Origin: a virus
Taxonomy: Duplodnaviria; Heunggongvirae; Uroviricota; Caudoviricetes
DNA: 29,026 nt
IMG/VR virus record: IMGVR_UViG_2671180727_000014
Span: 1 to 29,026 of that record
Direction: 5' to 3' (one strand)
Each line of letters starts with the position of its first letter. Positions within the stretch are counted from its first letter, which is position 1. Shown here in pieces: positions 1-29,026 of the stretch. The notes under the pieces are model-generated. The model had not been told where the DNA came from and searched no databases. It worked only from the letters and a program-made list of their open reading frames with translations. Both the position numbers and the translations under genes were made by a program.

Positions 1-3590
<3,590 letters not shown>

Positions 3591-3796: not shown

Positions 3797-5032
3797 TTAA
3801 CCAAATATTTTTTGAACAACTTCACGAGCCGCTTGTGCAGAAGCTGAAGGGAGTTTGTTAATGAAAGAACGCTCAATACCTGTCACAAAGTCGCCTCGCA
3901 TCATTCCAATCTTGGCCGACAACAAAAGTTCACGAGGGCCAATTGGCTGACTGATAAGGTGTTCTTCGTATCCATCGCGAACGATACCGGCAAACTTAAC
4001 CATCTTTTCTGCGTATTCATCCACGATACCGGCATTTATCAACATGTTGATCTCTGCCTCTTTGCTCATGTATTTCACATTCGAAACGATGCCAAAACGT
4101 GAAAAGTTCGCGGCGTTCTGGATGTTTGTACCCTGGTACAAGCCGGTTTCATCACCAGAACCGTTTGTGTTGCCAGTGCCAATGAAAGCAAACCGTTCAT
4201 GCGGAGTAATGCGACGCCATTCTGGAGTTGCCTCTTTGATGACCAACGCCTCACCTTCCAGCACTGGCTGATACACGCCAAGAATTTGTGGAAACGCAAA
4301 GTCGTATTCATCCGCGAGGTAAACCCAGCCATGCTTCATTGCGAGCGCAAGCAAGCCAGGCTCGAAATACGTAGAGCCATCACGCGCCAGAATTTGCCCC
4401 GTAACATGTGCCTCTTCCATTGATGCTGTATGTTGGGCACGGATCAACGGACGATTGAGCAAAGCACATAGCTGTGTAGGCAATGACGATTTGCCTGTTC
4501 CTGCATGACCCCACAAATAGCCAGGTATGCCAAGTTCAAGCATCATGAAAATATCTTTGATCAGTTCGAAGTCGCCATATACGTAGCCCTTCTTCACTTC
4601 TGGAACGAACTCTGGATACGGCGTATTGACGTTGACGCTAACCATGAGCGGCGTCCCACGTTTTGTTCCGAGTTCTTCCACCGTTACGTTTAGCAGTTCG
4701 TGAGCTGCGACCAGATCTGTCTTGTACTCAACTGTGCCTGTGTAGCCTGGGCTACTGGTCAAGCCAGAAGATTTCGCCATTTCGCTTTTTTGCTCGGCAC
4801 GTTTAGCTTGAATTGCATCAAGTGCCTTTTTCGATAGCGTTGGTTCATCTGGAAACTGCGTTGTGTACATTTTCAGTACGGTGTCAGGATCGGCATCTTT
4901 TACTGACTCAGGAATGCCCTCGCAATTACCATTGGCTACATGGGACTTAAAATAGTGAAATGATTTGCCGCACCACTTGCAAACAAGGTAATCAGAAGGA
5001 TTTTTATCATTTTGCAGTGCAGTAGTAGTCAT
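3797..5032 (-). CDS. AAA+ ATPase of the MoxR/CobS-like class, 411 aa
   Basis: Walker A GHAGTGKSS and Walker B-like VYLADEYD; N-terminal Cys cluster (CKWCGKSFHYF...GNC); sits immediately downstream of a vWA protein on the same strand. Confidence 0.8.
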   Translation of the reverse strand: MTTTALQNDKNPSDYLVCKWCGKSFHYFKSHVANGNCEGIPESVKDADPDTVLKMYTTQFPDEPTLSKKALDAIQAKRAEQKSEMAKSSGLTSSPGYTGTVEYKTDLVAAHELLNVTVEELGTKRGTPLMVSVNVNTPYPEFVPEVKKGYVYGDFELIKDIFMMLELGIPGYLWGHAGTGKSSLPTQLCALLNRPLIRAQHTASMEEAHVTGQILARDGSTYFEPGLLALAMKHGWVYLADEYDFAFPQILGVYQPVLEGEALVIKEATPEWRRITPHERFAFIGTGNTNGSGDETGLYQGTNIQNAANFSRFGIVSNVKYMSKEAEINMLINAGIVDEYAEKMVKFAGIVRDGYEEHLISQPIGPRELLLSAKIGMMRGDFVTGIERSFINKLPSASAQAAREVVQKIFG

Positions 5033-7798: not shown

Positions 7799-8185
7799 AT
7801 GTCTGATAACAAGATTGAATTTATAGAAAGTCGCTACGCTGCTTTTATCGCAGGGTTGATTGAATCCTCACCTATGAGTCAGGCCCAAATAGCCAGACTT
7901 ATTGGTTACAAAAATGCCAACAACCTTTCTTTAATTAAAAGTGGCAAAATTCCTTTGCCTATCGATAAGGTTCGTCCGTTGGCGCTGGCGCTGGGTATTG
8001 AGCCAAGTCGTCTTATGATGATGGTGCTGGAAGAACGCCAACCTGAACTCGCAGCATTTTTATACAAAGAAGGCACCGCTCCTCTTAACGAGGACGAAAA
8101 ACAGGTTCTTGCTGCATATAACGAGCGATTCGGTAAAGAGAAAGGCGCATCACAAAAGGTTGTTGAGGCCATAAAGTCTCTATGA
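7799..8185 (+). CDS. helix-turn-helix (XRE/Cro-CI-like) transcriptional regulator, 128 aa
   Basis: HTH-like segment SQAQIARLIGYKNANNLSLIKSGKIP; divergent from and convergent-overlapping with the recombinase gene; palindromic operator in its own promoter. Confidence 0.6.
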   Translation: MSDNKIEFIESRYAAFIAGLIESSPMSQAQIARLIGYKNANNLSLIKSGKIPLPIDKVRPLALALGIEPSRLMMMVLEERQPELAAFLYKEGTAPLNEDEKQVLAAYNERFGKEKGASQKVVEAIKSL

Positions 8186-9283
8186 AAAATTTACACGAAT
8201 AAGCTCTGTTGATAGACGATCTCCCTTAAATTTGTGGTCAATTTCGTCTAAATCCGGTTGCTCTACGATTGATGCGATGTACGTCGAGAAACTTTCTAAG
8301 GCGTCTCGCATCTCGTCCATATAATCGTGCCGGTCGTAGACCCGATCTATCCCCTCAAGACTGTGGTTCATGATTTTACGTGATACCTCCTGGCTTATGC
8401 CTAATGCTGGGAAGTAACTACGCGCAGTACGGCGCAAATCTCGGGGTGTAAATGGCTCAAGCTCCATCAGTTCTGGTCGTTCCAGAATACGACGTAATGC
8501 CTGGGCTATTGCCACTTTAGACATAGGAAGGTCTTTCCCGATTTTTTTATTCGAAGGCACGAGCCACTGGCTGTCTTTACCATATTCGAACAACTCTTCA
8601 ATACAAGTGCGCATTAATGAGCTTAAAGGCAGAGAATGCTCACGGGCAGATTTGTTCCTCTTGCCTTGATTCCAAACCCCACGCTTAAGATTGAACTCAC
8701 TTTTTTTAGCCCGCAGTACTTCGTCAGGTCGTCTTGCGGATACAAGACATAGCCTGGCCGCCCATTTTGTACCAGCACACACATTGAAGTAGTCCCATAT
8801 ATTCCAGAACACCCATACCTCTGCGTCGGTCAGCTTCCGCTCGCGAGGTGTGGGCTTTGCGCCACCGGCAACTTTGTTAAGTGACATATCGTTTAACGGT
8901 GACACGTCTATCATCCCCTGGAAGGCGCACCAGCTAAGGAACTGCTTCATCAGAGAGAAAACGCGGCGGCCCATAACAATTTTGCCATCCAGTATTAGTG
9001 GGTTGACCAGTTGGTTCACCATGAACCTATTAATGTCACTTACTTTTACATCGGCAATGTGCGGCAAAACATGTATCAAAATACAATGAACAGCGATCTC
9101 TGGCCGACGTCTGGTTATCAGCAGAGATAAGCGAGTGAATAACATGAATGCGTCCGAGAATCTCATGTCATTGCTGACCTGGGAGATCATAACGGCCTGC
9201 ATTTGAGATGCTCTTTCGAGATACTCTATCGCCTCTTTTGAGGTGTTCTCCGCAGCGCGTGCTCTGTCAAAGCTATTTTTCAT
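8180..9283 (-). CDS. tyrosine site-specific recombinase (integrase/resolvase family), 367 aa
   Basis: C-terminal catalytic-region pattern: ...ARRPDEVLRA..., FTPRDLRRTARSY (HxLRxT-like box), IMNHS, and the putative catalytic Tyr in RVYDRH. Confidence 0.75.
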   Translation of the reverse strand: MKNSFDRARAAENTSKEAIEYLERASQMQAVMISQVSNDMRFSDAFMLFTRLSLLITRRRPEIAVHCILIHVLPHIADVKVSDINRFMVNQLVNPLILDGKIVMGRRVFSLMKQFLSWCAFQGMIDVSPLNDMSLNKVAGGAKPTPRERKLTDAEVWVFWNIWDYFNVCAGTKWAARLCLVSARRPDEVLRAKKSEFNLKRGVWNQGKRNKSAREHSLPLSSLMRTCIEELFEYGKDSQWLVPSNKKIGKDLPMSKVAIAQALRRILERPELMELEPFTPRDLRRTARSYFPALGISQEVSRKIMNHSLEGIDRVYDRHDYMDEMRDALESFSTYIASIVEQPDLDEIDHKFKGDRLSTELIRVNFS

Positions 9284-11655: not shown

Positions 11656-11742
11656 TGGCGGAGAGTAATGGAATCGAACCATCATCGCTTGCGCAATGGG
11701 ACGGTTTTCAAGACCGCTTGAGCACCATGCTCCCTACTCTCC
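11656..11742 (-). tRNA. tRNA-Ser (anticodon UGA), long variable arm, CCA encoded
   Basis: Reverse complement GGAGAGT...GCGGT-CTTGAAA-ACCGT...GATGG-TTCGATT-CCATT-ACTCTCC-G-CCA: 7-bp acceptor stem, anticodon loop CU-UGA-AA, T-loop TTCGATT. The D-arm is not fully resolved by hand. Confidence 0.7.
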
Positions 11743-11966
11743 GGCCGTTGTGGTGGCCGGTACTGAATCTCCGGCATACGGTGCAGCCAATTAGGACTAC
11801 GGACGATCACCGCTCGCGAAAGGGAAGATTTGCGGCCGCATTTCCCTAACATCCAAGAAAGCTATCGCATCAGTCTGCGAATCCACCACAACGGTAAGAT
11901 CACTACCTTTCGACCAGTCATTGTGCACATGAACGACGATTAACCGTAATGATCTTATCGTTGTAT

Positions 11967-12042
11967 TGGTGCCGGTTAGCGGACTCGAACCGCTGACATC
12001 CTGCTTACAAGGCAGGCGCTCTACCAACTGAGCTAAACCGGC
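11967..12042 (-). tRNA. tRNA-Thr (anticodon UGU), CCA encoded
   Basis: Reverse complement GCCGGTTTAGCTCAGTTGGTAGAGCGCCTGCCTTGTAAGCAGGATGTCAGCGGTTCGAGTCCGCTAACCGGCACCA: perfect 7-bp acceptor stem, anticodon loop CTTGTAA, T-loop GGTTCGAGTCC. Confidence 0.85.
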
Positions 12043-12046
12043 AATT

Positions 12047-12133
12047 TGGTGGGGAGTGATGGAGTCGAACCACCCGAGTCGCAATGACAGTAGATTTACA
12101 GTCTACCCCGCTGCCCCTACGGACTAACTCCCC
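12047..12133 (-). tRNA. tRNA-Tyr (anticodon GUA), long variable arm, CCA encoded
   Basis: Reverse complement GGGGAGT...GTAGA-CTGTAAA-TCTAC...GGTGG-TTCGACT-CCATC-ACTCCCC-A-CCA. Confidence 0.8.
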
Positions 12134-12138
12134 TAAAT

Positions 12139-12213
12139 TGGCGATGGTGGGTGGATTCGAACCACCGACCAGTTGGTTAACAGCCAACTGCTCTACCGCT
12201 GAGCTACACCATC
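12139..12213 (-). tRNA. tRNA-Asn (anticodon GUU), CCA encoded
   Basis: Reverse complement GATGGTGTAGCTCAGCGGTAGAGCAGTTGGCTGTTAACCAACTGGTCGGTGGTTCGAATCCACCCACCATCGCCA: 7-bp acceptor stem, anticodon loop CTGTTAA. Confidence 0.85.
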
Positions 12214-18995: not shown

Positions 18996-19745
18996 TTAAT
19001 TAGATAGGGGATCAATAAACCGCCGTGCTTCTTCCAGTTCTTCTGGAAAGTGGGCGGAAATAAGGCGCTCTGGAACGATTTCCATTAGCCAGATAGCGGA
19101 GAAAATTGCGCGTATGCGCTTGCTGCGGGGGATGGTGCGTAAACGCTCCAGAATCCACTCAAAATAGCTTTCCTGAATCGGGTTGAACTGCATGTCTCCC
19201 ATATTCTTAAAGCTAACGAGAGAGTCATCCAGACGGGTTGTTGCGCGTCTGGCTAATTTCTCTTCGAATATCTCAATCAGCTCTGGCTGCCACAAATGCT
19301 GTGGGCGCGGCAGCTTGTCCCACAGCCGTCGTGCAGCTGCGGAAAGAACGGTGGAGATAAAGTAGTCGTATGAGCAGCAATAGCGATCCGCAAACTGGCG
19401 TGCTTTCCATAGCGACGTTTTATTGGCAGTCGACAACTCCTGATAAGGCAGGCGTTTTAACCCGGTGGTGAACGGAGCTGTTTCAAAGTGTTCGCGACCG
19501 TGCGTCAGCATGATATTTGAGTACTGACGTTTGTATGCCTCCGTAAAAAGACAGGTGGCCATGAGAGGATGCATGTCGCGGTAATCAAACCACTTCGTCT
19601 CGAAGAGTTCAGCCTCGTCTTTACAGCGCGACAAACCAATGTTTTCAGCGACCCACTTGTCCATAACAGCGGTATTCCACTCTGTCATGAAGTCGTACTG
19701 GTCGTTGTCGATGGTATCGAAAAAGATTTGGCTCATGTGGCTCAC
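18996..19745 (-). CDS. hypothetical protein, 249 aa
   Basis: ORF; no recognisable motif. My hand translation near 19680-19745 was off by one base from the ORF track, so the exact start is uncertain. Confidence 0.5.
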   Translation of the reverse strand: MSHMSQIFFDTIDNDQYDFMTEWNTAVMDKWVAENIGLSRCKDEAELFETKWFDYRDMHPLMATCLFTEAYKRQYSNIMLTHGREHFETAPFTTGLKRLPYQELSTANKTSLWKARQFADRYCCSYDYFISTVLSAAARRLWDKLPRPQHLWQPELIEIFEEKLARRATTRLDDSLVSFKNMGDMQFNPIQESYFEWILERLRTIPRSKRIRAIFSAIWLMEIVPERLISAHFPEELEEARRFIDPLSN

Positions 19746-19747
19746 CT

Positions 19748-19770
19748 GGTAGGTAGTTACTTACTTATCA
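19748..19770. promoter_or_regulatory. palindrome-family site GGTAGGTAGTTACTTACTTATCA; a second palindrome AATAAGT-T-ACTTATT lies at 19871-19887
   Basis: Read directly in the AT-rich divergent region between the 249-aa gene and the GIY-YIG gene. Confidence 0.35.
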
Positions 19771-20018
19771 CAATGAGCGGATGATAGCGACTGGTGGCAG
19801 TTTTTGGAAGTGGAAACGGAAGGGAGTTGTTCTGGTGGTGTCTTTTAAAAGACCTGCTTCCGTATATATTTAATAAGTTACTTATTATTTATATATACAG
19901 AAGCAGGCATAACTTGTCGTCTTAGACGCCCAGAAGCTCTACACTTTGAGCCTGTTAAATTGATTAAAAACTTATGTGTAAAATAGAACGCATTAGTCAG
20001 TAGCAAAGAGATGCAATA

Positions 20019-20786
20019 ATGGACGATTTATCGGTATACGCGAGATCATTGGATAAGGCTAAATACTATGTTTACTGTCTCTATGATACAGAAGACAAGA
20101 TGAAAAGACCGTTTTACATAGGAAAAGGCAAATCGACTCGTTGTCTCGATCACATCAAGTATCCCGATGACTCTCCCAAATCCATGCGGATCAAAGAACT
20201 TTTGGCTAATAAAAAATTAGGCATAGATATACTTCGTCATGGTATGGATGAAACCACAGCCAAACTTGTTGAGGCGACATGCATCGACCTTATGGGGGTC
20301 GGAGAGCTTACGAATAAGGTACGAGGAAGTGGTTCCATGATGGGCAGAATATCACTGGACGCCTACCATCACTTAGTGCTGCAAGAGGAAACTGAAATTG
20401 CTCCTGAGCACGCCGGTCTTGCCTTCCTGCTAAACAGCACCTACAAGTCAGGAATGTCCGCTCTGGCATTATATGAAGCTACGCGTGGCGTATGGGCAAA
20501 GGTTCCAAGAGACGAGAATCTCAAATATGCCTACGCTACATATGGTGGGCTGATAATGGAAGTTTATCAGATTGAATGCTGGGTCAAAGCCGGTTCTCAG
20601 CAGTACTTTACAAGGGATATAGCTCTTGGCCCCGACACAAAACGTTATGAATTTGTTGGCAGAATAGCCGATGAGCATATTAGAAAACTGTATGTAGGCA
20701 AATTAATCAAGAAGCCACCAAGCTACGGTAGCCCTTTTGTGAAGGTTGGGGTGGTTAGGACTGAACATAGTGTTAGCGCGGCATAA
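20019..20786 (+). CDS. GIY-YIG nuclease-domain protein with an uncharacterised C-terminal domain, 255 aa
   Basis: N-terminal GIY-YIG signature YYVYCLYDTEDKMKRPFYIGKGKSTRCLDH; the C-terminal ~150 aa has no motif I can name; solitary plus-strand gene with its own terminator. Confidence 0.65.
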   Translation: MDDLSVYARSLDKAKYYVYCLYDTEDKMKRPFYIGKGKSTRCLDHIKYPDDSPKSMRIKELLANKKLGIDILRHGMDETTAKLVEATCIDLMGVGELTNKVRGSGSMMGRISLDAYHHLVLQEETEIAPEHAGLAFLLNSTYKSGMSALALYEATRGVWAKVPRDENLKYAYATYGGLIMEVYQIECWVKAGSQQYFTRDIALGPDTKRYEFVGRIADEHIRKLYVGKLIKKPPSYGSPFVKVGVVRTEHSVSAA

Positions 20787-20802
20787 AGCTGACACTGTAG
20801 TT

Positions 20803-20840
20803 ATGCATTGGCGCAATGTACGCGCCAATGCATGATTTTT
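20803..20840 (+). terminator. terminator hairpin (12-bp inverted repeat ATGCATTGGCGC / GCGCCAATGCAT, 7-nt loop) followed by a T-run
   Basis: Read directly; sits between the convergent GIY-YIG gene and the ParA-partner gene. Confidence 0.6.
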
Positions 20841-21198
20841 AACCTTTCTTCATCAACTCTCGTTTGATTTCATCGGTACGCATCGTGACATCGGCAGCGG
20901 TGATCGCCTCGTTAAGTTTCACGATGTCCTCGATTTCCTGCGGTGTCTTCTCCGCAAGATGGAAAATAGCAGCACGAATCACGTCAGAACGAGTGAACTT
21001 CTCGAAGCGAGGGATGAACTTCATCATCTCCAGCAGTTCGAAGTATTCGTCCTCCAGTGACATTGTGCGGCTTTTAATTTTCTCTTTGCCACGAGTCGGG
21101 CGTCCCTGTGGTCTGACTGGTTGGCGCAAAGGAGTTGTGTTCTTAGCCGGTGCATCAGGCTCTTTGCGCTTTGCTAGGTCACCCATTTTCATGGACAT
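20839..21198 (-). CDS. small partition partner protein (ParG/ParB-like, possible ribbon-helix-helix), 119 aa
   Basis: Immediately downstream of parA and overlapping it by 1 nt; basic Pro/Arg-rich N-terminal tail followed by a compact domain (SRTMSLEDEYFELL...RSDVIRAAIFHLAE). Confidence 0.45.
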   Translation of the reverse strand: MSMKMGDLAKRKEPDAPAKNTTPLRQPVRPQGRPTRGKEKIKSRTMSLEDEYFELLEMMKFIPRFEKFTRSDVIRAAIFHLAEKTPQEIEDIVKLNEAITAADVTMRTDEIKRELMKKG

Positions 21199-21866
21199 TA
21201 TTCTTTTTCCTCCAGACTCAACAGATAATCTACAAATTCTTCAAACTCGGCTTCCGCCTTTTTGTCGCGCTCGCTACCGGTCATTTCAAAGATAGAACGA
21301 CCAGACTCTTCCGCATCATCATAGACGTTGCGGTTATATAGATTGACTGGCGCAGACTCGATGCCAAACGTCTCAACAATCTCTTTAGCCGCCAGAATGC
21401 GAGACACTTGTGATGGCAAAGCCGGACACTGGTTCATGACCGCGCGGACCTTCACTTTATCGTTTACATTACGAACATTGTCGATAATAGGATCGATATC
21501 ACGCAGAGATTTCAAATCACGACGCTTAGGACGAAGCGGGATAATGATAACGTCGGCCATCAGCATCGCTTGTCGCTGAATTTCGGAGTCGAAGCCACCA
21601 GCATCTACCACTACAAACTCAGCTCTACCCTGAAGCGATTTTAGGTGCTTAATGATGTCATCCTGAACGTATGCAAAAGGAATCAGCTCAAGGTCTTCGT
21701 TCTGTCGACGGTCTTCACACCAGCTCGTTGTCGTGCGCTGAATATCTATATCGGTAATATAAACCTTCTTCTTCTTTTTGACTTTCAGGCAAACGGCAAT
21801 TTGCTGGGCAACGGTGGATTTGCCAGGCCCGCCCTTTGTGCCGCCAACCACAAAGATCTTGGTCAT
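21198..21866 (-). CDS. parA: ParA/Soj-family partition ATPase, 222 aa
   Basis: Deviant Walker A KGGPGKST (IFVVGGTKGGPGKSTVA) and Walker B VVVDAGG. Confidence 0.85.
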   Translation of the reverse strand: MTKIFVVGGTKGGPGKSTVAQQIAVCLKVKKKKKVYITDIDIQRTTTSWCEDRRQNEDLELIPFAYVQDDIIKHLKSLQGRAEFVVVDAGGFDSEIQRQAMLMADVIIIPLRPKRRDLKSLRDIDPIIDNVRNVNDKVKVRAVMNQCPALPSQVSRILAAKEIVETFGIESAPVNLYNRNVYDDAEESGRSIFEMTGSERDKKAEAEFEEFVDYLLSLEEKE

Positions 21867-22184
21867 TGGAGAGTTCCCTTTGCGTATATAATTATCGTCT
21901 GAAACAACTTGTTTTCTTATATGTGATATAGCCTAAATGCCTACGGCTGCGGTGTAAAGGTTAAATGGTAGGTTGTGATTAACAATTGGCAATCATAGCT
22001 TGTATTTGTCTGTTGAAAAAAGTAACAATGACCTCTATATTACAAGTACGGTGATATGCCGTACACAATTTGATAATGCACACGTAATGGGCTATAGCCT
22101 TTTAAAGTAATTTTTGAGTCGAAAACTCAGTTTGAACAGAGGAGATTGATGGCCTTCCTACATCACGGCCATCAGGAGGAATAC

Positions 22185-22454
22185 ATGTCAGCACTAAAAA
22201 AGCAGCGCATCGATTTGAGATTAACCGATGACGATAAAAGCATCATCGAGGAAGCTGCCGCAATGTCTAACCAGAGCATTACTCAGTTTATGGTTAGCAG
22301 TGCATCTGAACGTGCCGTGAAAGTTATAGAGCAACACCGTAGACTAGTTCTGAATGAAGAATCCTGGAATCTGGTTATGGACGCTATAAGCAATCCTCCG
22401 GCACCGAACGACAAGCTGAAACGAGCTGCTGATCGTCTGAAAAGCATGGAGTAG
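22185..22454 (+). CDS. DUF1778-type ribbon-helix-helix antitoxin (TacA/AtaR-like), about 90 aa
   Basis: RIDLRLTDDDKSIIEEAAA...SITQFMVSSASERA and the NPPAPNDKL motif typical of antitoxins paired with GNAT toxins; AGGAGG ribosome-binding site before the ATG at 22185 (ORF track starts at 22146). Confidence 0.75.
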   Translation: MSALKKQRIDLRLTDDDKSIIEEAAAMSNQSITQFMVSSASERAVKVIEQHRRLVLNEESWNLVMDAISNPPAPNDKLKRAADRLKSME

Positions 22455-22461
22455 TTTACTC

Positions 22462-22983
22462 GTGAGCAATACAACGATAGAGATTTTCTCTGGAGAGAAA
22501 GATTATGATCTAAACGGTTTTGATTGCGGCGAAGAGTCACTAAACGCCTTTTTAGCCAACCACTTAAAAAGGCAGCATGAGGGAAAAATTCTTCGTGCTT
22601 ATGTGCTTTGCACTCAAGAAGAAAGGCCAAAAGTGTTAGGATATTACACTTTGTCAGGTAGTTGTTTTGAAAAGGAGTCCTTACCTTCAAGAAGCAAACA
22701 AAAGAAGGTTCCTTATCGGAATGTTCCAAGTGTTACTTTGGGTAGGCTGGCTTTGGACAAGTCCCTTCAAGGTCAAGGATTTGGCTCAATGCTTGTAACA
22801 CATGCAATGCGCGTTGTGTACAATGCATCTCTTGCTGTAGGCATTCATGGACTTTTCGTTGAGGCGTTAAATGACAAAGCCAAGGCGTTTTATAAAAGTT
22901 TAGGCTTTATCCAGCTGGTTGGTAACAACGAGCGTTCTTTGTTCTATCCTACAAAATCTATCGAAAAATTGTTCGAAGAATAA
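22462..22983 (+). CDS. GNAT-family acetyltransferase toxin (TacT/AtaT-like), 173 aa
   Basis: GNAT fold motifs (RLALDKSLQGQGFGSMLV...), start 8 nt after the antitoxin stop; classical antitoxin-then-toxin order. Confidence 0.75.
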   Translation: MSNTTIEIFSGEKDYDLNGFDCGEESLNAFLANHLKRQHEGKILRAYVLCTQEERPKVLGYYTLSGSCFEKESLPSRSKQKKVPYRNVPSVTLGRLALDKSLQGQGFGSMLVTHAMRVVYNASLAVGIHGLFVEALNDKAKAFYKSLGFIQLVGNNERSLFYPTKSIEKLFEE

Positions 22984-24495: not shown

Positions 24496-24512
24496 GGTAG
24501 GTAAGTACTTAC
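24496..24512. promoter_or_regulatory. perfect 12-bp palindrome GTAAGTACTTAC (with flanking GGTAG) upstream of the lysis cluster; a candidate -10 TATGAT lies downstream on the minus strand
   Basis: Read directly, about 55 nt upstream of the holin-like ATG. Confidence 0.4.
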
Positions 24513-25348
24513 ACATGAGCGCCGTAAATTGCCCCAACTTTAGTCCAAGTTGGAGCATTACCAGTAACAGCTTTACCAGCTGCTCCGCCGTTATATTCTG
24601 TACCGTTACCTTGAGTATTACATCTTCCTCCAGCAGCACCGACATTACCACCCGAACCGCCTGTATATGCACTAAGAGACCCCTCACCAACAGATCCTTT
24701 ACCAGGAGCGGAAATAGTACCAGCAGTTGCACCGGAACTCATATGAGAGGAAGACCCACCAGCACCGAATGGGCAACCACCGCCACCACCAAATATTAGT
24801 TTACCCCTGTTACCGCCGCCACCGCCGCCACCACCTCCAGCGATTGCACCATTATTCGTAATACGCAAGCGTGTACCGATGCCATTATTAATTGCGTTAC
24901 CACCAGCAGCACCGGCAGCGTTACTACCACCATTGCCACCGCGTCCATAGACAGTCACACCTGCGTTGATTACAAGGCTGATATAAGAGTTGGTAAGTGA
25001 ACTCGGGAAATCTAAACATGGCACGCCGCTACTGGACGACACCAGATCCCCTGTAATGGTAACAACGACTGGCGTCGCCCCCTGGGATTTTAAATAGTTG
25101 ATCAGTGTGTCTTTGTTGTAGTTATGATTCGCACCGATGCTGTAATGAATTTCCTTAGAACGACCTGCTAACTGAGACATATTCCCAGCAGCAGACAATT
25201 GCACCGCCGTTCGAGCTGCACTCATCCATCTCTGGCCTGTCACACTGACAGCCGAAGACCCAATCCAACCGGGAACACCGACAATTGGCACATCTAATCT
25301 CCTTTTTGATGTGAATATCCTGAATTGGTGAGGGTGGCCCCTCACCAT
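24509..25348 (-). CDS. glycine-rich protein immediately downstream of the tail fiber gene (possible adhesin or tail fiber accessory protein), up to 279 aa
   Basis: Runs such as GRGGNGGSNAAGAAGGN and GGGGGGGGGNRGKLIFGGGGG. An alternative GTG start at about 25291 is preceded by AAGGAG; the annotated ATG at 25348 lies inside a hairpin. Confidence 0.5.
   Translation of the reverse strand: MVRGHPHQFRIFTSKRRLDVPIVGVPGWIGSSAVSVTGQRWMSAARTAVQLSAAGNMSQLAGRSKEIHYSIGANHNYNKDTLINYLKSQGATPVVVTITGDLVSSSSGVPCLDFPSSLTNSYISLVINAGVTVYGRGGNGGSNAAGAAGGNAINNGIGTRLRITNNGAIAGGGGGGGGGNRGKLIFGGGGGCPFGAGGSSSHMSSGATAGTISAPGKGSVGEGSLSAYTGGSGGNVGAAGGRCNTQGNGTEYNGGAAGKAVTGNAPTWTKVGAIYGAHV
25327..25346 (-). other. hairpin (8-bp stem GGTGAGGG / CCCTCACC, loop TGGC) between the tail fiber stop and the glycine-rich gene
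   Basis: Read directly; no U-tract, so it could be an attenuator or translational control structure. Confidence 0.4.
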
Positions 25349-25357
25349 TCACCTTGA

Positions 25358-28300
25358 TTACATTTTTGCCTTCAGTTCGCGCACTTCCTCGCGCAGCTCT
25401 TTGACAGCCTCGACCAACATGCCGATAACGCCGTTGTAGTTAAGACGCAGACGAGGCTCTCCTGACTGATCGTTATGGTCAACCGTTACCAGTTCAGGCT
25501 GAACATTCTGGACGTCCTGAGCGATGAGGCCGCCAGACTGCTCATACCGGTCACAGACCTGAATCTCGTACAGAACACCTTCGATCCGATCCAGCTTGTC
25601 GAGCGCTCGTTCAATCTTGCGAATATTGCGTTTGCTACGACGGTCAGAGCGGATATAAACGTCATTAAAGCTGCCATTACCGCCACAAACCCAAGTACCA
25701 TCATTCTGGAGGTATGCGTTCGCATCCGTGCCGTTTGCGGTACGTGAGTTGTTGATCATGTAAAAACCAAACTGACTGTTTCCCAAGCCACCCAAGAAGA
25801 ATTTGCGATCCGCGTGGTCTTGTCTCAACAACGCTTGTGCAGAGCTTGTACTTACAGCGTTCCTCCCGAAGATGACGTTCTGGTTACGCATATCTATCCA
25901 CGCGCCAGAGCCGCTGTTGATGGAAAAACGGTTGGCGTAAACCCACGCACTTGACGTGATGTCACCCGTTACACTCAACGGCTTAAGGCTTTGCAGCGTG
26001 CTATTAACGAACCTAAAAACATGGGCGCTATTGGCGTAAACATCCAGAATGCCATCTCCGTTCTGTTTAAAGCCGGTGTCATTGTCACCCAGAACAATGG
26101 AATTACCGCCAAGAGCACTGGATGTACCGATGCCCAGTGCACCATTCAATTGACCTCCAGATAATGATAACGCCCCAACATCAGCAGCAGTCGGTTTAAT
26201 GTGCGAACTGTAAATTACATATACAGTTCCATCTGTCAGGCCTGTTGGTTTATTCGCTGTATAAGTTGGTGATGTATGAATCGTTACGCTGGCGTTACTG
26301 GTATAATCCCACTGGATATTAACACCTGTGGCGTAATTACCTATTTCTACATAAATGTCATAGGTATCACCGGATGTATTCACCCATGCAAAATTAGTAA
26401 ATCCAACCGAGGTCCGTCGCCATAATGCACCAGTAATACCTTTGGGGTTCCCATTTCCTGCACGCAGAACCAGCTCAGAGATGCCTGCTTGCTGCGGGGA
26501 GCCAACGTTAAACCCTGCGCCACCAATCAGGCTTATGTAAACCACGGAACTGGCTTGTGGCATGGTTACAGTTGCCAGCTTGAACCATCCGGCACCACCA
26601 CTAAAAGACATTGTTGCTGAGTTGATCGTGCCTATAGACCTTGGAGTTAGCTCAATGTTTTTAGAACCGTCAAACGACACCCCATTTATAGTTCTAGCGG
26701 TTTGTAACTTGGTCGCTGTCGCTGCATTACCGGTTGTGTTCTGGTTACCAGCAATGTTTACACCCGGCAGGTTGATATTGGCGGAGCCATCGAATGACAC
26801 GCCGCCTATTGTGCGTGCTGTTTGCAGTTTTGTTGCAGTTGCAGCATTACCGTTCAAACTACCATTGATGCCGCCAGTAACATTGAGTCCATTACCGATC
26901 GTAACAGCACCGCTGGTATTATTAATTATAATAGGTCGCAAACCGTTCCATGAACCTAATGTGTCTCCTGATGCTGTTAGCATGAAATATGTGTTCGATC
27001 CATCATTACGGATAAAGAATCCATAGTTGCCATAGGCAATGCGCATACCATTCGCCGATTTTGAAATAATCTCGCCAGCAGCAGTTAATCCGCCAGTTAA
27101 CGCTCCTCCAGAAAGCGGTAATGCTCCTACATCAGAAGCTGTTGGTTTGTTTCTAGTGTTATAAGAACGACGCCAGCCTGGTGCATAATCACTCCCATTG
27201 TACACATAAATAAATTCCGCATTATTAACACCACCATGACCTGATGTTGTTGTCGTTGTAACACGAATAGTGTAGTGGCTTGTTGCCTTATTACTAAACA
27301 CCTCAATCACGGAACCAGATAGATCGATCCTACCGCAACCAGTGTCGTCTATATAATTATTGTTGGCGTAAGCCCATGAGCACCGTGCAATCCAATATTT
27401 GTTTGAAAATGCACCCTGATTATTTAGCCAAGTTATAAATTGAGCAGTCGTAAATGCCGTTCCGTTACCACTATTTAACCATCCATCGGCAGCGGTTGGC
27501 GCGTTTATATCAGCCGGCTGAGGCATAAATCCAGTCGTGTAAACCTGCTCCCAACCACTTTCAAAACCATAACCGTCTCTTGAGGAACGGTAGAACAGAC
27601 CACCATTTTTATAGTGAGCTTTAATTTGAAGCGTACGGCAACTACCTACACCGGTATAAAAGTTGGCAAGAATATAACTGTCGCCTGTTCTATTTACATT
27701 GTAAGCACCAGATTCAGCATTCCACGGCACGCCACCATCAGCATCCGCATATGACCCTGTTGCCCTTCTTGCGAAAGCGGCAACATGCGCAGCGGTTAAA
27801 GTGATATCAGTAGAACCATCAAATGGAACACCGGATATTTTTCTTACCGTCTGAAGTTTTGTAGCAGTTGCAGCATTACCAGTGGTGTTCTGATTACCCG
27901 TAGTGTTTACACCTGGAAGGTTAATATTTGCAGAACCGTCGAAAACAACTCCACCGATAGATCTTGCCGTCTGCAATTTCGTTGCTGTACTTGCATTACC
28001 ATTTAATGTTCCGGTGATACCACCAGTAACAGACAACGGACCTGAAACTGTTCCTCCGGTTGTTGGCAGTGCTCCAATATCTAACGGCGTCGGTTTCTGA
28101 TGTGTGCTATACATCGTATAAACAACACCATCGGTAACGCTGGAAGGCTTACTCGCTGAATATGTTGGCGATGTATAAATAGAAACTGACGCATTTGCAG
28201 TACAATCCCAATGGATATTTACACTCGTCGCATAATTGCCAATTTCAACGTAAATATCATATGTATCGCCGGATGTGTTGATCCAGGCGAAATTCGCTAA

Positions 28301-29026
28301 TCCGACAGCTGTACGCTTCCACAAAGCACCTGTAATTCCTTTGGGGTTTCCATTGCCTGCTCGTAGAACCAGTTCTGAAATGCCTGCCTGATGTGGGGAA
28401 CCGACGTTGTAACCAGCGCCACCAATCAATGCGATGTAAACGATGGAACTCGCTTGTGGCATGGTAACCGTAGCCAGTTTGAACCACCCTGCCCCGCCAG
28501 AGAAAGACATCGTTACTGAATTTAAAGTACCAATATCTTTCGGCGTTAATGTGATATCCGCAGTCAGTGCTTTTCCGTTAACTTTTCGGTTAGATGGCAC
28601 CCTGCTATTCGCATTGTCATTGGCTGCTTTAACTGCCTTCGGTGTCGCGGCAAGCGTTTCAGATGTGCTGTTGGTCGCACTGCTGAGCTGTACTATCCCC
28701 TTTTTCGTCGTACTTGCATCCTCAAGCGCCACGGCGGATGCAATATCCTCTGCCCGTTTAGCTGCTGTCTCGGCGCGCGTTGCCGCGGATTCCGCCGTAC
28801 TTTTGCTCTGAGCTGCCGCCGTCGCACTACCAGCTGCCTCTGTCGCCTTCGTGGATGCCGTCGTGGCGCTGCCTTTCGCTGCTGATGCCTGTCTGGTCGC
28901 CTCATCTTTTGAAGCAGACGCAGATGATGCCGATGACGCTGCCGAACTGGCGGACGATGCGGCTGCCGTTTTTGAGGATTCTGCACGGGTTTCCGACGCT
29001 TTCGCGTTCGTTTCGGATGTCTTCGC
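25358..29026 (-). CDS. long tail fiber protein, 5'-truncated by the window end (at least 1222 aa in window), with C-terminal intramolecular chaperone (peptidase S74-like) domain
   Basis: The frame stays open to position 29026; the ORF-track start at 28732 is an internal GTG. Ala/Ser/Thr-rich N-terminal repeats (AKTSETNAKASETRAESSKTAAAS...), then GIVQLSSATNSTSETLAATPKAVKAAND. Fiber repeats NGNAATATKLQTARTIGGVSFDGSANINLPGVN. C-terminal chaperone-like DRRSKRNIRKIERALDKLDRIEGVLYEI...LREEVRELKAKM. Confidence 0.85.
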   Translation of the reverse strand, partial: AKTSETNAKASETRAESSKTAAASSASSAASSASSASASKDEATRQASAAKGSATTASTKATEAAGSATAAAQSKSTAESAATRAETAAKRAEDIASAVALEDASTTKKGIVQLSSATNSTSETLAATPKAVKAANDNANSRVPSNRKVNGKALTADITLTPKDIGTLNSVTMSFSGGAGWFKLATVTMPQASSIVYIALIGGAGYNVGSPHQAGISELVLRAGNGNPKGITGALWKRTAVGLANFAWINTSGDTYDIYVEIGNYATSVNIHWDCTANASVSIYTSPTYSASKPSSVTDGVVYTMYSTHQKPTPLDIGALPTTGGTVSGPLSVTGGITGTLNGNASTATKLQTARSIGGVVFDGSANINLPGVNTTGNQNTTGNAATATKLQTVRKISGVPFDGSTDITLTAAHVAAFARRATGSYADADGGVPWNAESGAYNVNRTGDSYILANFYTGVGSCRTLQIKAHYKNGGLFYRSSRDGYGFESGWEQVYTTGFMPQPADINAPTAADGWLNSGNGTAFTTAQFITWLNNQGAFSNKYWIARCSWAYANNNYIDDTGCGRIDLSGSVIEVFSNKATSHYTIRVTTTTTSGHGGVNNAEFIYVYNGSDYAPGWRRSYNTRNKPTASDVGALPLSGGALTGGLTAAGEIISKSANGMRIAYGNYGFFIRNDGSNTYFMLTASGDTLGSWNGLRPIIINNTSGAVTIGNGLNVTGGINGSLNGNAATATKLQTARTIGGVSFDGSANINLPGVNIAGNQNTTGNAATATKLQTARTINGVSFDGSKNIELTPRSIGTINSATMSFSGGAGWFKLATVTMPQASSVVYISLIGGAGFNVGSPQQAGISELVLRAGNGNPKGITGALWRRTSVGFTNFAWVNTSGDTYDIYVEIGNYATGVNIQWDYTSNASVTIHTSPTYTANKPTGLTDGTVYVIYSSHIKPTAADVGALSLSGGQLNGALGIGTSSALGGNSIVLGDNDTGFKQNGDGILDVYANSAHVFRFVNSTLQSLKPLSVTGDITSSAWVYANRFSINSGSGAWIDMRNQNVIFGRNAVSTSSAQALLRQDHADRKFFLGGLGNSQFGFYMINNSRTANGTDANAYLQNDGTWVCGGNGSFNDVYIRSDRRSKRNIRKIERALDKLDRIEGVLYEIQVCDRYEQSGGLIAQDVQNVQPELVTVDHNDQSGEPRLRLNYNGVIGMLVEAVKELREEVRELKAKM
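26153..26653 (-). repeat. copy B of the duplicated tail fiber module (TPRSIGTINSATMSFSGGAGWFKLATVTMPQASS...TSPTY...ALSLSGG)
   Basis: As for copy A; each copy is adjacent to a pair of ATATKLQT fiber repeats (about 27797-28015 and 26654-26881). Confidence 0.75.
28049..28552 (-). repeat. copy A of a duplicated ~168-aa tail fiber module (TPKDIGTLNSVTMSFSGGAGWFKLATVTMPQASS...TSPTY...ALPTTGG)
   Basis: Aligned by eye to copy B with high amino-acid identity; antisense ORFs in both regions also share peptides, showing nucleotide-level similarity. Confidence 0.75.

Follow-up and report, generated by a model that had tools for sequence, protein, structure and literature searches.

A predicted CMoRE-family restriction endonuclease in a cargo slot of SSU5-like phage-plasmids

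A gene carried on an SSU5-like phage-plasmid of Escherichia coli very probably encodes a divergent member of the PD-T4-3/CMoRE family of stand-alone type IV (modification-dependent) restriction endonucleases, with a base specificity and a part in defence that are predicted from its characterised relatives. [quoted passage not shown] Here we show that the homology extends over both domains, that the catalytic residues are retained and that the gene occupies a cassette with defined boundaries, in place of which related elements carry other cargo.

PD-T4-3, now called CMoRE, has been characterised (Liu et al., Nat Commun 2026, PMC12923530), with sources in E. coli ECOR68, APEC O1 and O157:H7 and in Klebsiella pneumoniae and structures deposited as PDB 9U7U, 9U7Z, 9U75 and 9U8D. 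The enzyme defends E. coli directly against phages T2, T4 and T6; it binds and cleaves DNA containing 5-hydroxymethylcytosine (5hmC) or glucosyl-5hmC, not C or 5mC, with the cut pattern CN11/N9G and 2-nt 3' overhangs, and is weakly active on arabinosylated Bas46 and Bas47 (PMC12923530). Its N-terminal GIY-YIG domain contains a third tyrosine in the motif (GIYxY-YIG) and an autoinhibitory loop of acidic character, and its C-terminal domain binds 5hm-dCTP in the crystal, the one 5hmC contact given in the text of that paper being the main-chain atom Y127 O. The assembly is a dimer of dimers that is needed for function, through a V92/L96 interface and the β1-β2 loop (PMC12923530). PD-T4-3Capno, obtained from Capnocytophaga by metagenomic selection and 48% identical to PD-T4-3, belongs to the same family as the window protein; it was recovered on phage Mu and also cleaves the DNA of that phage, which contains carbamoylmethyl-adenine, and is a modification-dependent nuclease whose active-site mutants lose defence (PMC12366544). 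All tested family members, from three phyla, restrict T-even phages in dependence on cytosine modification (PMC12923530, PMC12366544).

Membership of the PD-T4-3/CMoRE family

The first-pass annotation had claimed an open reading frame at 20019-20786 (+), and it is present exactly so, with an ATG start and 255 aa. The protein is labelled 'LEM-3-like GIY-YIG domain-containing protein' or 'hypothetical' in RefSeq. Pfam finds in it only LEM-3_GIY-YIG (PF22945), at residues 32-104, leaving the C-terminal half without a Pfam domain, and NCBIfam gives no match to the 255-aa protein, which is why that half looked unassigned and had been called novel. The description was mistaken: although unassigned in Pfam, the domain is homologous to the CMoRE sensor, as the HMM and structure-based searches proposed alongside the claim brought out through matches to PADLOC PDLC04031 and the CMoRE chains in the PDB.

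The PADLOC model in question, that of PD-T4-3, matches the protein at E = 1.3e-23, aligning residues 11-231 with profile positions 11-238 of 256. A phmmer comparison with crystallised CMoRE (E = 2e-15) aligns residues 12-230 with chain residues 17-243 and covers both domains, a profile of 39 family members matches the CMoRE chains at E = 4e-23, and in fold comparison the protein matches the CMoRE structures best. Like CMoRE/PD-T4-3, the window protein is the product of a single gene of ~255-262 aa with a GIYxY-YIG motif, catalytic Arg/Glu/Asn and a homologous C-terminal sensor, and the alignment runs end to end.

The N-terminal part (20019-20333) has the GIY-YIG fold with the Tyr, Tyr, Arg, Glu and Asn of the superfamily. 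Y17-V-Y19 and F32-Y33-I-G35 align with CMoRE Y17, Y19 and Y31, and R41, E85 and N99 with the catalytic Arg, Glu and Asn of that enzyme, each set being invariant in the 39 subfamily members and in both CMoRE sequences (numbering in the PDB chains is offset by 5 from that of the paper, as checked on R80, V92, L96 and Y127). The annotation had named these catalytic residues as those on which its nuclease call hung, and they are present. The C-terminal modification-sensing domain (~aa 110-245; 20346-20753) is the less conserved half relative to CMoRE, with which it has at least nine positions in common: H131, N139, W159, W188, R209, F212, G214, Y225 and G227. Because both domains align and because the catalytic residues and these C-terminal positions are shared, we place the protein in the CMoRE/PD-T4-3 family; the architecture is single-component, one open reading frame in a 933-bp cassette with no partner gene.

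The protein is nevertheless only 32-33% identical to the crystallised CMoRE/PD-T4-3 enzymes, and is thus more distant from them than PD-T4-3Capno is from PD-T4-3 (48%, PMC12366544), so that the same specificity is not guaranteed. In comparison with CMoRE, it lacks a four-residue insertion (HVIH) before the RHG motif and has a β1-β2 loop that is two residues longer; of the dimer-interface residues, V92 is conserved as V84, whereas L96 corresponds to an invariant C88. The genomic setting differs as well, in that the window gene lies on an SSU5-like phage-plasmid, whereas CMoRE has been described from the chromosome and not from such an element.

Relatives of the protein are numerous. An HMMER scan of 1.84 billion cluster representatives returned 1781 at E ≤ 1e-3 (632 at E ≤ 1e-10), mostly two-domain proteins of 240-265 aa that form a continuum of 33-50% identity to the query. 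A tight subfamily delimited by word-indexed search, with members at least 51% identical and 245-255 aa long, has sources that include Salmonella, Providencia, Pluralibacter, Shewanella, Zobellella and many metagenomes; in Providencia the homologue stands alone in the mutS-rpoS region of the chromosome.

Sensor domain, acidic lid and base specificity

In a predicted model, the sensor gives structural matches of modest Z to ASCH domains, to EVE domains including THYN1 bound to 5mC DNA, to many YTH domains, to the N-domain of Staphylothermus marinus McrB and to the EVE-HNH enzyme VcaM4I, several of which we take to be members of the PUA-like class. Foldseek lists the same PUA-like proteins, with a probability of only ~0.1. 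The matches make plausible a remote PUA-like fold of the sensor, the kind of fold against which the annotation had proposed to search. The idea is without sequence support, because a search of all PDB sequences with the family profile gave, at E ≤ 10, no match beyond the CMoRE chains, and a Pfam scan of the 39 subfamily members at E ≤ 10 yielded GIY-YIG only, with no EVE, ASCH, YTH, SRA, NUMOD or IENR domain. The CMoRE sensor was published as a fold without relatives (PMC12923530). Type IV enzymes with PUA-like readers (VcaM4I, EVE-HNH; the S. marinus McrB N-domain; PvuRts1I/AbaSI, SRA-like; MspJI) differ from the window protein in their nuclease, which is of the HNH or PD-(D/E)XK type or a GTPase motor, and the Pfam and PDB profile searches found no relation of reader to reader at the sequence level. 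If true, PUA-like ancestry would tie CMoRE to the large class of type IV enzymes that combine a PUA-like domain with a nuclease, and would simplify the classification of modification-dependent nucleases.

The nuclease domain departs from CMoRE in a loop to which the published mechanism gives much weight. An acidic lid between α2 and α3, made of four consecutive acidic residues, is a hallmark of most family members according to the CMoRE authors, and mutation of the lid renders CMoRE toxic and less specific (PMC12923530). In CMoRE the lid reads VDDDE or ADDDD within a 15-residue loop; the window protein has at the same position a loop that is five residues shorter (aa 48-53, YPDDSP), in which only D50 and D51 are acidic. 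This short loop is identical in length in 38 of the 39 aligned subfamily members, with one or two acidic residues in close relatives and runs of three to four in some distant members of the subfamily. Since the lid is shortened and weakly acidic, the published safety-catch mechanism may not apply to the window protein. A broader proposal joins the two departures: the enterobacterial phage-plasmid subfamily would be a 'lid-less' CMoRE variant with a different discrimination of self from non-self and possibly another or broader base specificity, and its sensor would be a very divergent PUA-like (EVE/YTH/ASCH) reader. We offer this combination tentatively and regard it as doubtful when all its parts are taken together.

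These same departures bear on whether the substrate is that of CMoRE. An enzyme of this family could recognise arabinosyl-hmC, 5hmU derivatives or Mom-type carbamoylmethyl-adenine, instead of or besides 5hmC and 5ghmC, and control self-cleavage without an acidic lid. The identity of 32-33% to the crystallised enzymes, with the sensor as the less conserved half, and the short, weakly acidic lid of the enterobacterial clade are both consistent with such a shift; the family is also large and continuous (1781 representatives), and its plasticity is documented in the cutting of Mu DNA by PD-T4-3Capno (PMC12366544) and the weak action of CMoRE on Bas46 and Bas47 (PMC12923530). Against this stand the tested members of three phyla, all of which restrict T-even phages through cytosine modification, the core C-terminal residues in common with CMoRE, and the fact that, among phages with hypermodified DNA, the T-even group is the evident danger to E. 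coli. We consider a different or broader specificity unlikely, and take 5hmC or glucosyl-5hmC as the most probable target.

The cargo slot of SSU5-like phage-plasmids

The window derives from an SSU5-like phage-plasmid of E. coli and is 99.4% identical to Escherichia phage CMS-2020a, 99.9% to plasmid NZ_CP062914.1 and ~83% to Salmonella phage SSU5. It encodes a DnaE-like polymerase, CobS/CobT-like proteins, an integrase, four tRNAs, a ligase, a primase and a DnaB-like helicase and, in addition, holds the cargo slot, a small gene upstream of parA, ParA, a TacAT pair and a T-even-like tail fibre with a Gp38 adhesin; no DNA-modification gene was seen in the window. The tRNA genes (Ser-TGA, Thr-TGT, Tyr-GTA and Asn-GTT; 11656-12213, minus strand) lie in the replication module. 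The tail-fibre genes (24509-28732, minus strand) carry T-even-type domains, namely Gp38 adhesin (PF05268, E = 7e-70), gp34-trimer and gp37_C, and the phage-plasmid therefore probably recognises receptors in the manner of T-even phages, the very group that its nuclease is predicted to restrict.

The slot lies between the replication genes and the parAB-like partition genes, and the nuclease gene does stand, as first described, beside partition and toxin-antitoxin genes: ParA at 21198-21866 and a TacA-like antitoxin (PF08681) with a GNAT toxin at 22146-22983 (+). The TacA/GNAT pair is a variable insertion too and marks a second cargo position, immediately past parA; it is missing from relatives such as PhiR41_1, SSU5 and plasmid NZ_CP062814.1 (H20), where the match ends at 3974 of a 5001-nt query, or about 21973 in the window. 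The description of the nuclease gene as the only plus-strand gene apart from this pair is right locally and not for the window as a whole, which also has a plus-strand HTH regulator (7799-8185, phrog_8) converging on a tyrosine recombinase (8180-9283, minus strand) with a 6-nt overlap. Between the slot and parA, a minus-strand gene of 119 aa (20839-21198; phrog_5111, no Pfam match) lies directly upstream of parA and overlaps its start; by position, it probably encodes a ParB-like or centromere-binding partner.

The signals around the nuclease gene were read in part as the first-pass annotation had read them. A terminator claimed at 20803-20840 was found as a hairpin whose two 12-nt arms (20803-20814 and 20822-20833) pair perfectly ahead of a TTTTT run at 20836-20840; the whole intrinsic-terminator-like element, with its perfect core at 20803-20833, spans 20799-20840 (+), folds as RNA at -25.1 kcal/mol (z -4.7; 0 of 200 shuffles as stable) and abuts the stop codon of the convergent 119-aa gene. 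It was detected by the repeat finder and by folding only, and is not among the calls of a simple terminator scan of 19600-21000. The claimed extended -10 promoter fared less well: a sigma-70 promoter scan of the same interval, 19600-21000, found no sigma-70-like site, and the candidate -10 hexamer that can be read from the sequence, TAAAAT at 19979-19984 (+), drew no scan call and is preceded by a TGTG out of register for TGn, with candidate -35 hexamers that are poor or wrongly spaced. A Shine-Dalgarno-like AAGAG, likewise read by eye, lies at 20006-20010 (+), 8 nt before the ATG. The claim of an AT-rich upstream region holds (GC 0.35-0.40 at 19700-19999 against ~0.48 in the flanks). Of two palindromes reported there, the one at 19748-19770 is missing from the repeat-finder output and is by eye an imperfect match (6/8), whereas that at 19871-19887 is real but forms the centre of a larger, 55-nt palindrome at 19853-19907.

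The limits of the mobile unit emerge from comparison with relatives. BLAST breakpoints against four records with other cargo (L001-L004) fall at 19907, 19908 or 19917 on the left, at the right arm of the palindrome, and at 20841 on the right, just past the stop codon of the convergent gene (20839-20841). Because homology stops at 19907-19917 and resumes at 20841, we define the mobile unit as a 933-bp cassette, 19908-20840 (+), in which the CMoRE-like gene is preceded by a stretch with the presumed promoter and followed by the hairpin. Its GC content is below that of the backbone. At 95% identity or more, the cassette occurs in 136 PLSDB plasmids (134 of them from Escherichia), and it is found in 107 of the 5426 complete E. 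coli genomes, always on a plasmid and never on the chromosome. The last codons and stop of the 119-aa gene vary at the junction, the stop being TAA in the window and TGA in L001-L004.

The palindrome lies outside the cassette, at the left edge of the slot. It is AT-rich, with 17-nt arms (19853-19869 and 19891-19907; CCTGCTTCCGTATATAT and ATATATACAGAAGCAGG) that are 94% complementary and a DNA fold of -13.9 kcal/mol (z -6.0); the palindrome is written CCTGCTTCCGTATATAT...CAGAAGCAGG. All relatives have it, whichever cargo they carry, SSU5 (~82% overall identity) among them, and it lies ~110-160 nt upstream of the point where the leftward replication-gene operon begins. A search of the window for a second copy of the arm, as in a parS-like repeat, found none (0.05 chance matches expected). 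The palindrome may act as an operator or promoter element, be related to an origin, or form a recombination boundary for cassette exchange.

Relatives without the nuclease gene hold cargo of 0.8-2 kb at the same junctions. The annotation had looked to synteny for relatives lacking the insertion at an otherwise identical junction; what they carry is other cargo instead. SSU5 itself and many E. coli and Enterobacter elements have a DUF2971 protein (PADLOC candidate PDC-S31) in the slot, and others a 564-aa KAP-family NTPase (PADLOC candidate PDC-S49). In Shigella sonnei it holds a 350-aa protein (phrog_22329; no Pfam or PADLOC match), which is a candidate new defence or anti-defence gene. The alternative cargo lies at 2431-3186 (-) in L001, 2416-4110 (-) in L002, 2533-3585 (+) in L003 and 2435-3193 (-) in L004, and each alternative cassette has its own, different hairpin beside the right junction. 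The span of a further match (H19) implies a fifth cargo of ~2 kb. When the two flanks were joined into one query, only 5 of 660 records matched both at a single place. In the one inspected (L009, NZ_CP113488.1, 1800-1835), 33 nt separate the flanks, ~20 nt of which match the start of the SSU5-type DUF2971 cassette, and the 3' end of the neighbouring gene is also altered; this near-empty slot is a deletion derivative and not a pristine target site.

The position of the gene, between replication and partition modules of an element that can grow lytically, would also suit a nuclease serving the phage-plasmid itself, through degradation of host or competitor DNA in lytic growth, anti-defence, or processing in replication or partition, and not host defence. 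Such a role is very improbable: the gene is dispensable, being replaced by unrelated cargo in near-identical elements, homologues also occur outside mobile replication modules, and the nearest relatives that have been characterised serve defence and spare unmodified DNA (PMC12923530). For anti-defence, which had been listed among the candidate roles, we found no supporting evidence.

Weakest is the reading as a free-standing, selfish GIY-YIG homing endonuclease that cuts an empty allele in related phage-plasmids and copies itself in, which we reject as largely refuted and scarcely credible because the near-empty record is a deletion derivative and no homing-type DNA-binding module is present (no NUMOD, IENR1 or HTH module in 39 members at Pfam E ≤ 10, the C-terminal half being a CMoRE sensor), while relatives hold other cargo where an empty target site would be sought and homologues are widespread as solitary chromosomal genes in bacteria. 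In this the protein differs both from GIY-YIG homing endonucleases (I-TevI) and from type II enzymes (Eco29kI), having no homing module, partner methyltransferase or empty target site. Among the roles first put forward, the modified-base-reading nuclease is very probably right and defence stands by analogy, whereas homing and anti-defence do not.

The same two observations, a deletion derivative in place of an empty site and the lack of a homing-type module, support the view of the slot as a defence-cargo hotspot like those of other temperate elements. P2/P4-type defence hotspots (PMC13586616) are similar in offering a fixed backbone position to interchangeable, self-contained defence cassettes; here an SSU5-like phage-plasmid provides the backbone, and the slot is bounded by a conserved palindrome on one side and, on the other, by the stop codon of the gene that precedes parA. 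A non-exhaustive literature search found no earlier description of this slot.

Predicted action and significance

By analogy with CMoRE, the C-terminal domain would bind a flipped-out modified base, most likely the 5-hydroxymethyl- or glucosyl-hydroxymethyl-cytosine of T-even phages; a dimer or tetramer would read two modified sites, and the N-terminal GIY-YIG domain (Y17, Y19, Y33, R41, E85 and N99, with Mg2+ or Mn2+) would cut both strands. Unmodified host and phage-plasmid DNA would be spared. Defence would be direct, not abortive, and would protect the cell and its resident phage-plasmid from phages with hypermodified DNA. The gene travels in a 933-bp unit complete in itself, which brings along a terminator and presumably a promoter as well.

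The gene is largely ordinary, and adds little to basic knowledge: the function, mechanism and structures of its family were published in 2022-2026, and its presence on SSU5-like phage-plasmids is on record. In a 2025 phage-plasmid survey, DefenseFinder assigned PD-T4-3 to SSU5-like clade J elements of E. coli and Shigella, and the supplementary table of that survey mentions PD-T4-3 at least 44 times, on clade J and K SSU5 contigs; given the PADLOC match and the frequency of the cassette, these calls are likely to be the window gene. The NILS69 paper says nothing on a phage-plasmid location of its PD-T4-3.

With its shortened lid, the protein lends itself to a natural test of autoinhibition as published for CMoRE. 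Among complete E. coli genomes, 107 of 5426 (~2%) are predicted to carry an unrecognised, plasmid-borne type IV enzyme that is likely to restrict T-even therapeutic phages. More widely, SSU5-like phage-plasmids have a sharply bounded, single-gene slot that exchanges candidate defence genes, and it is a place in which to seek new systems.
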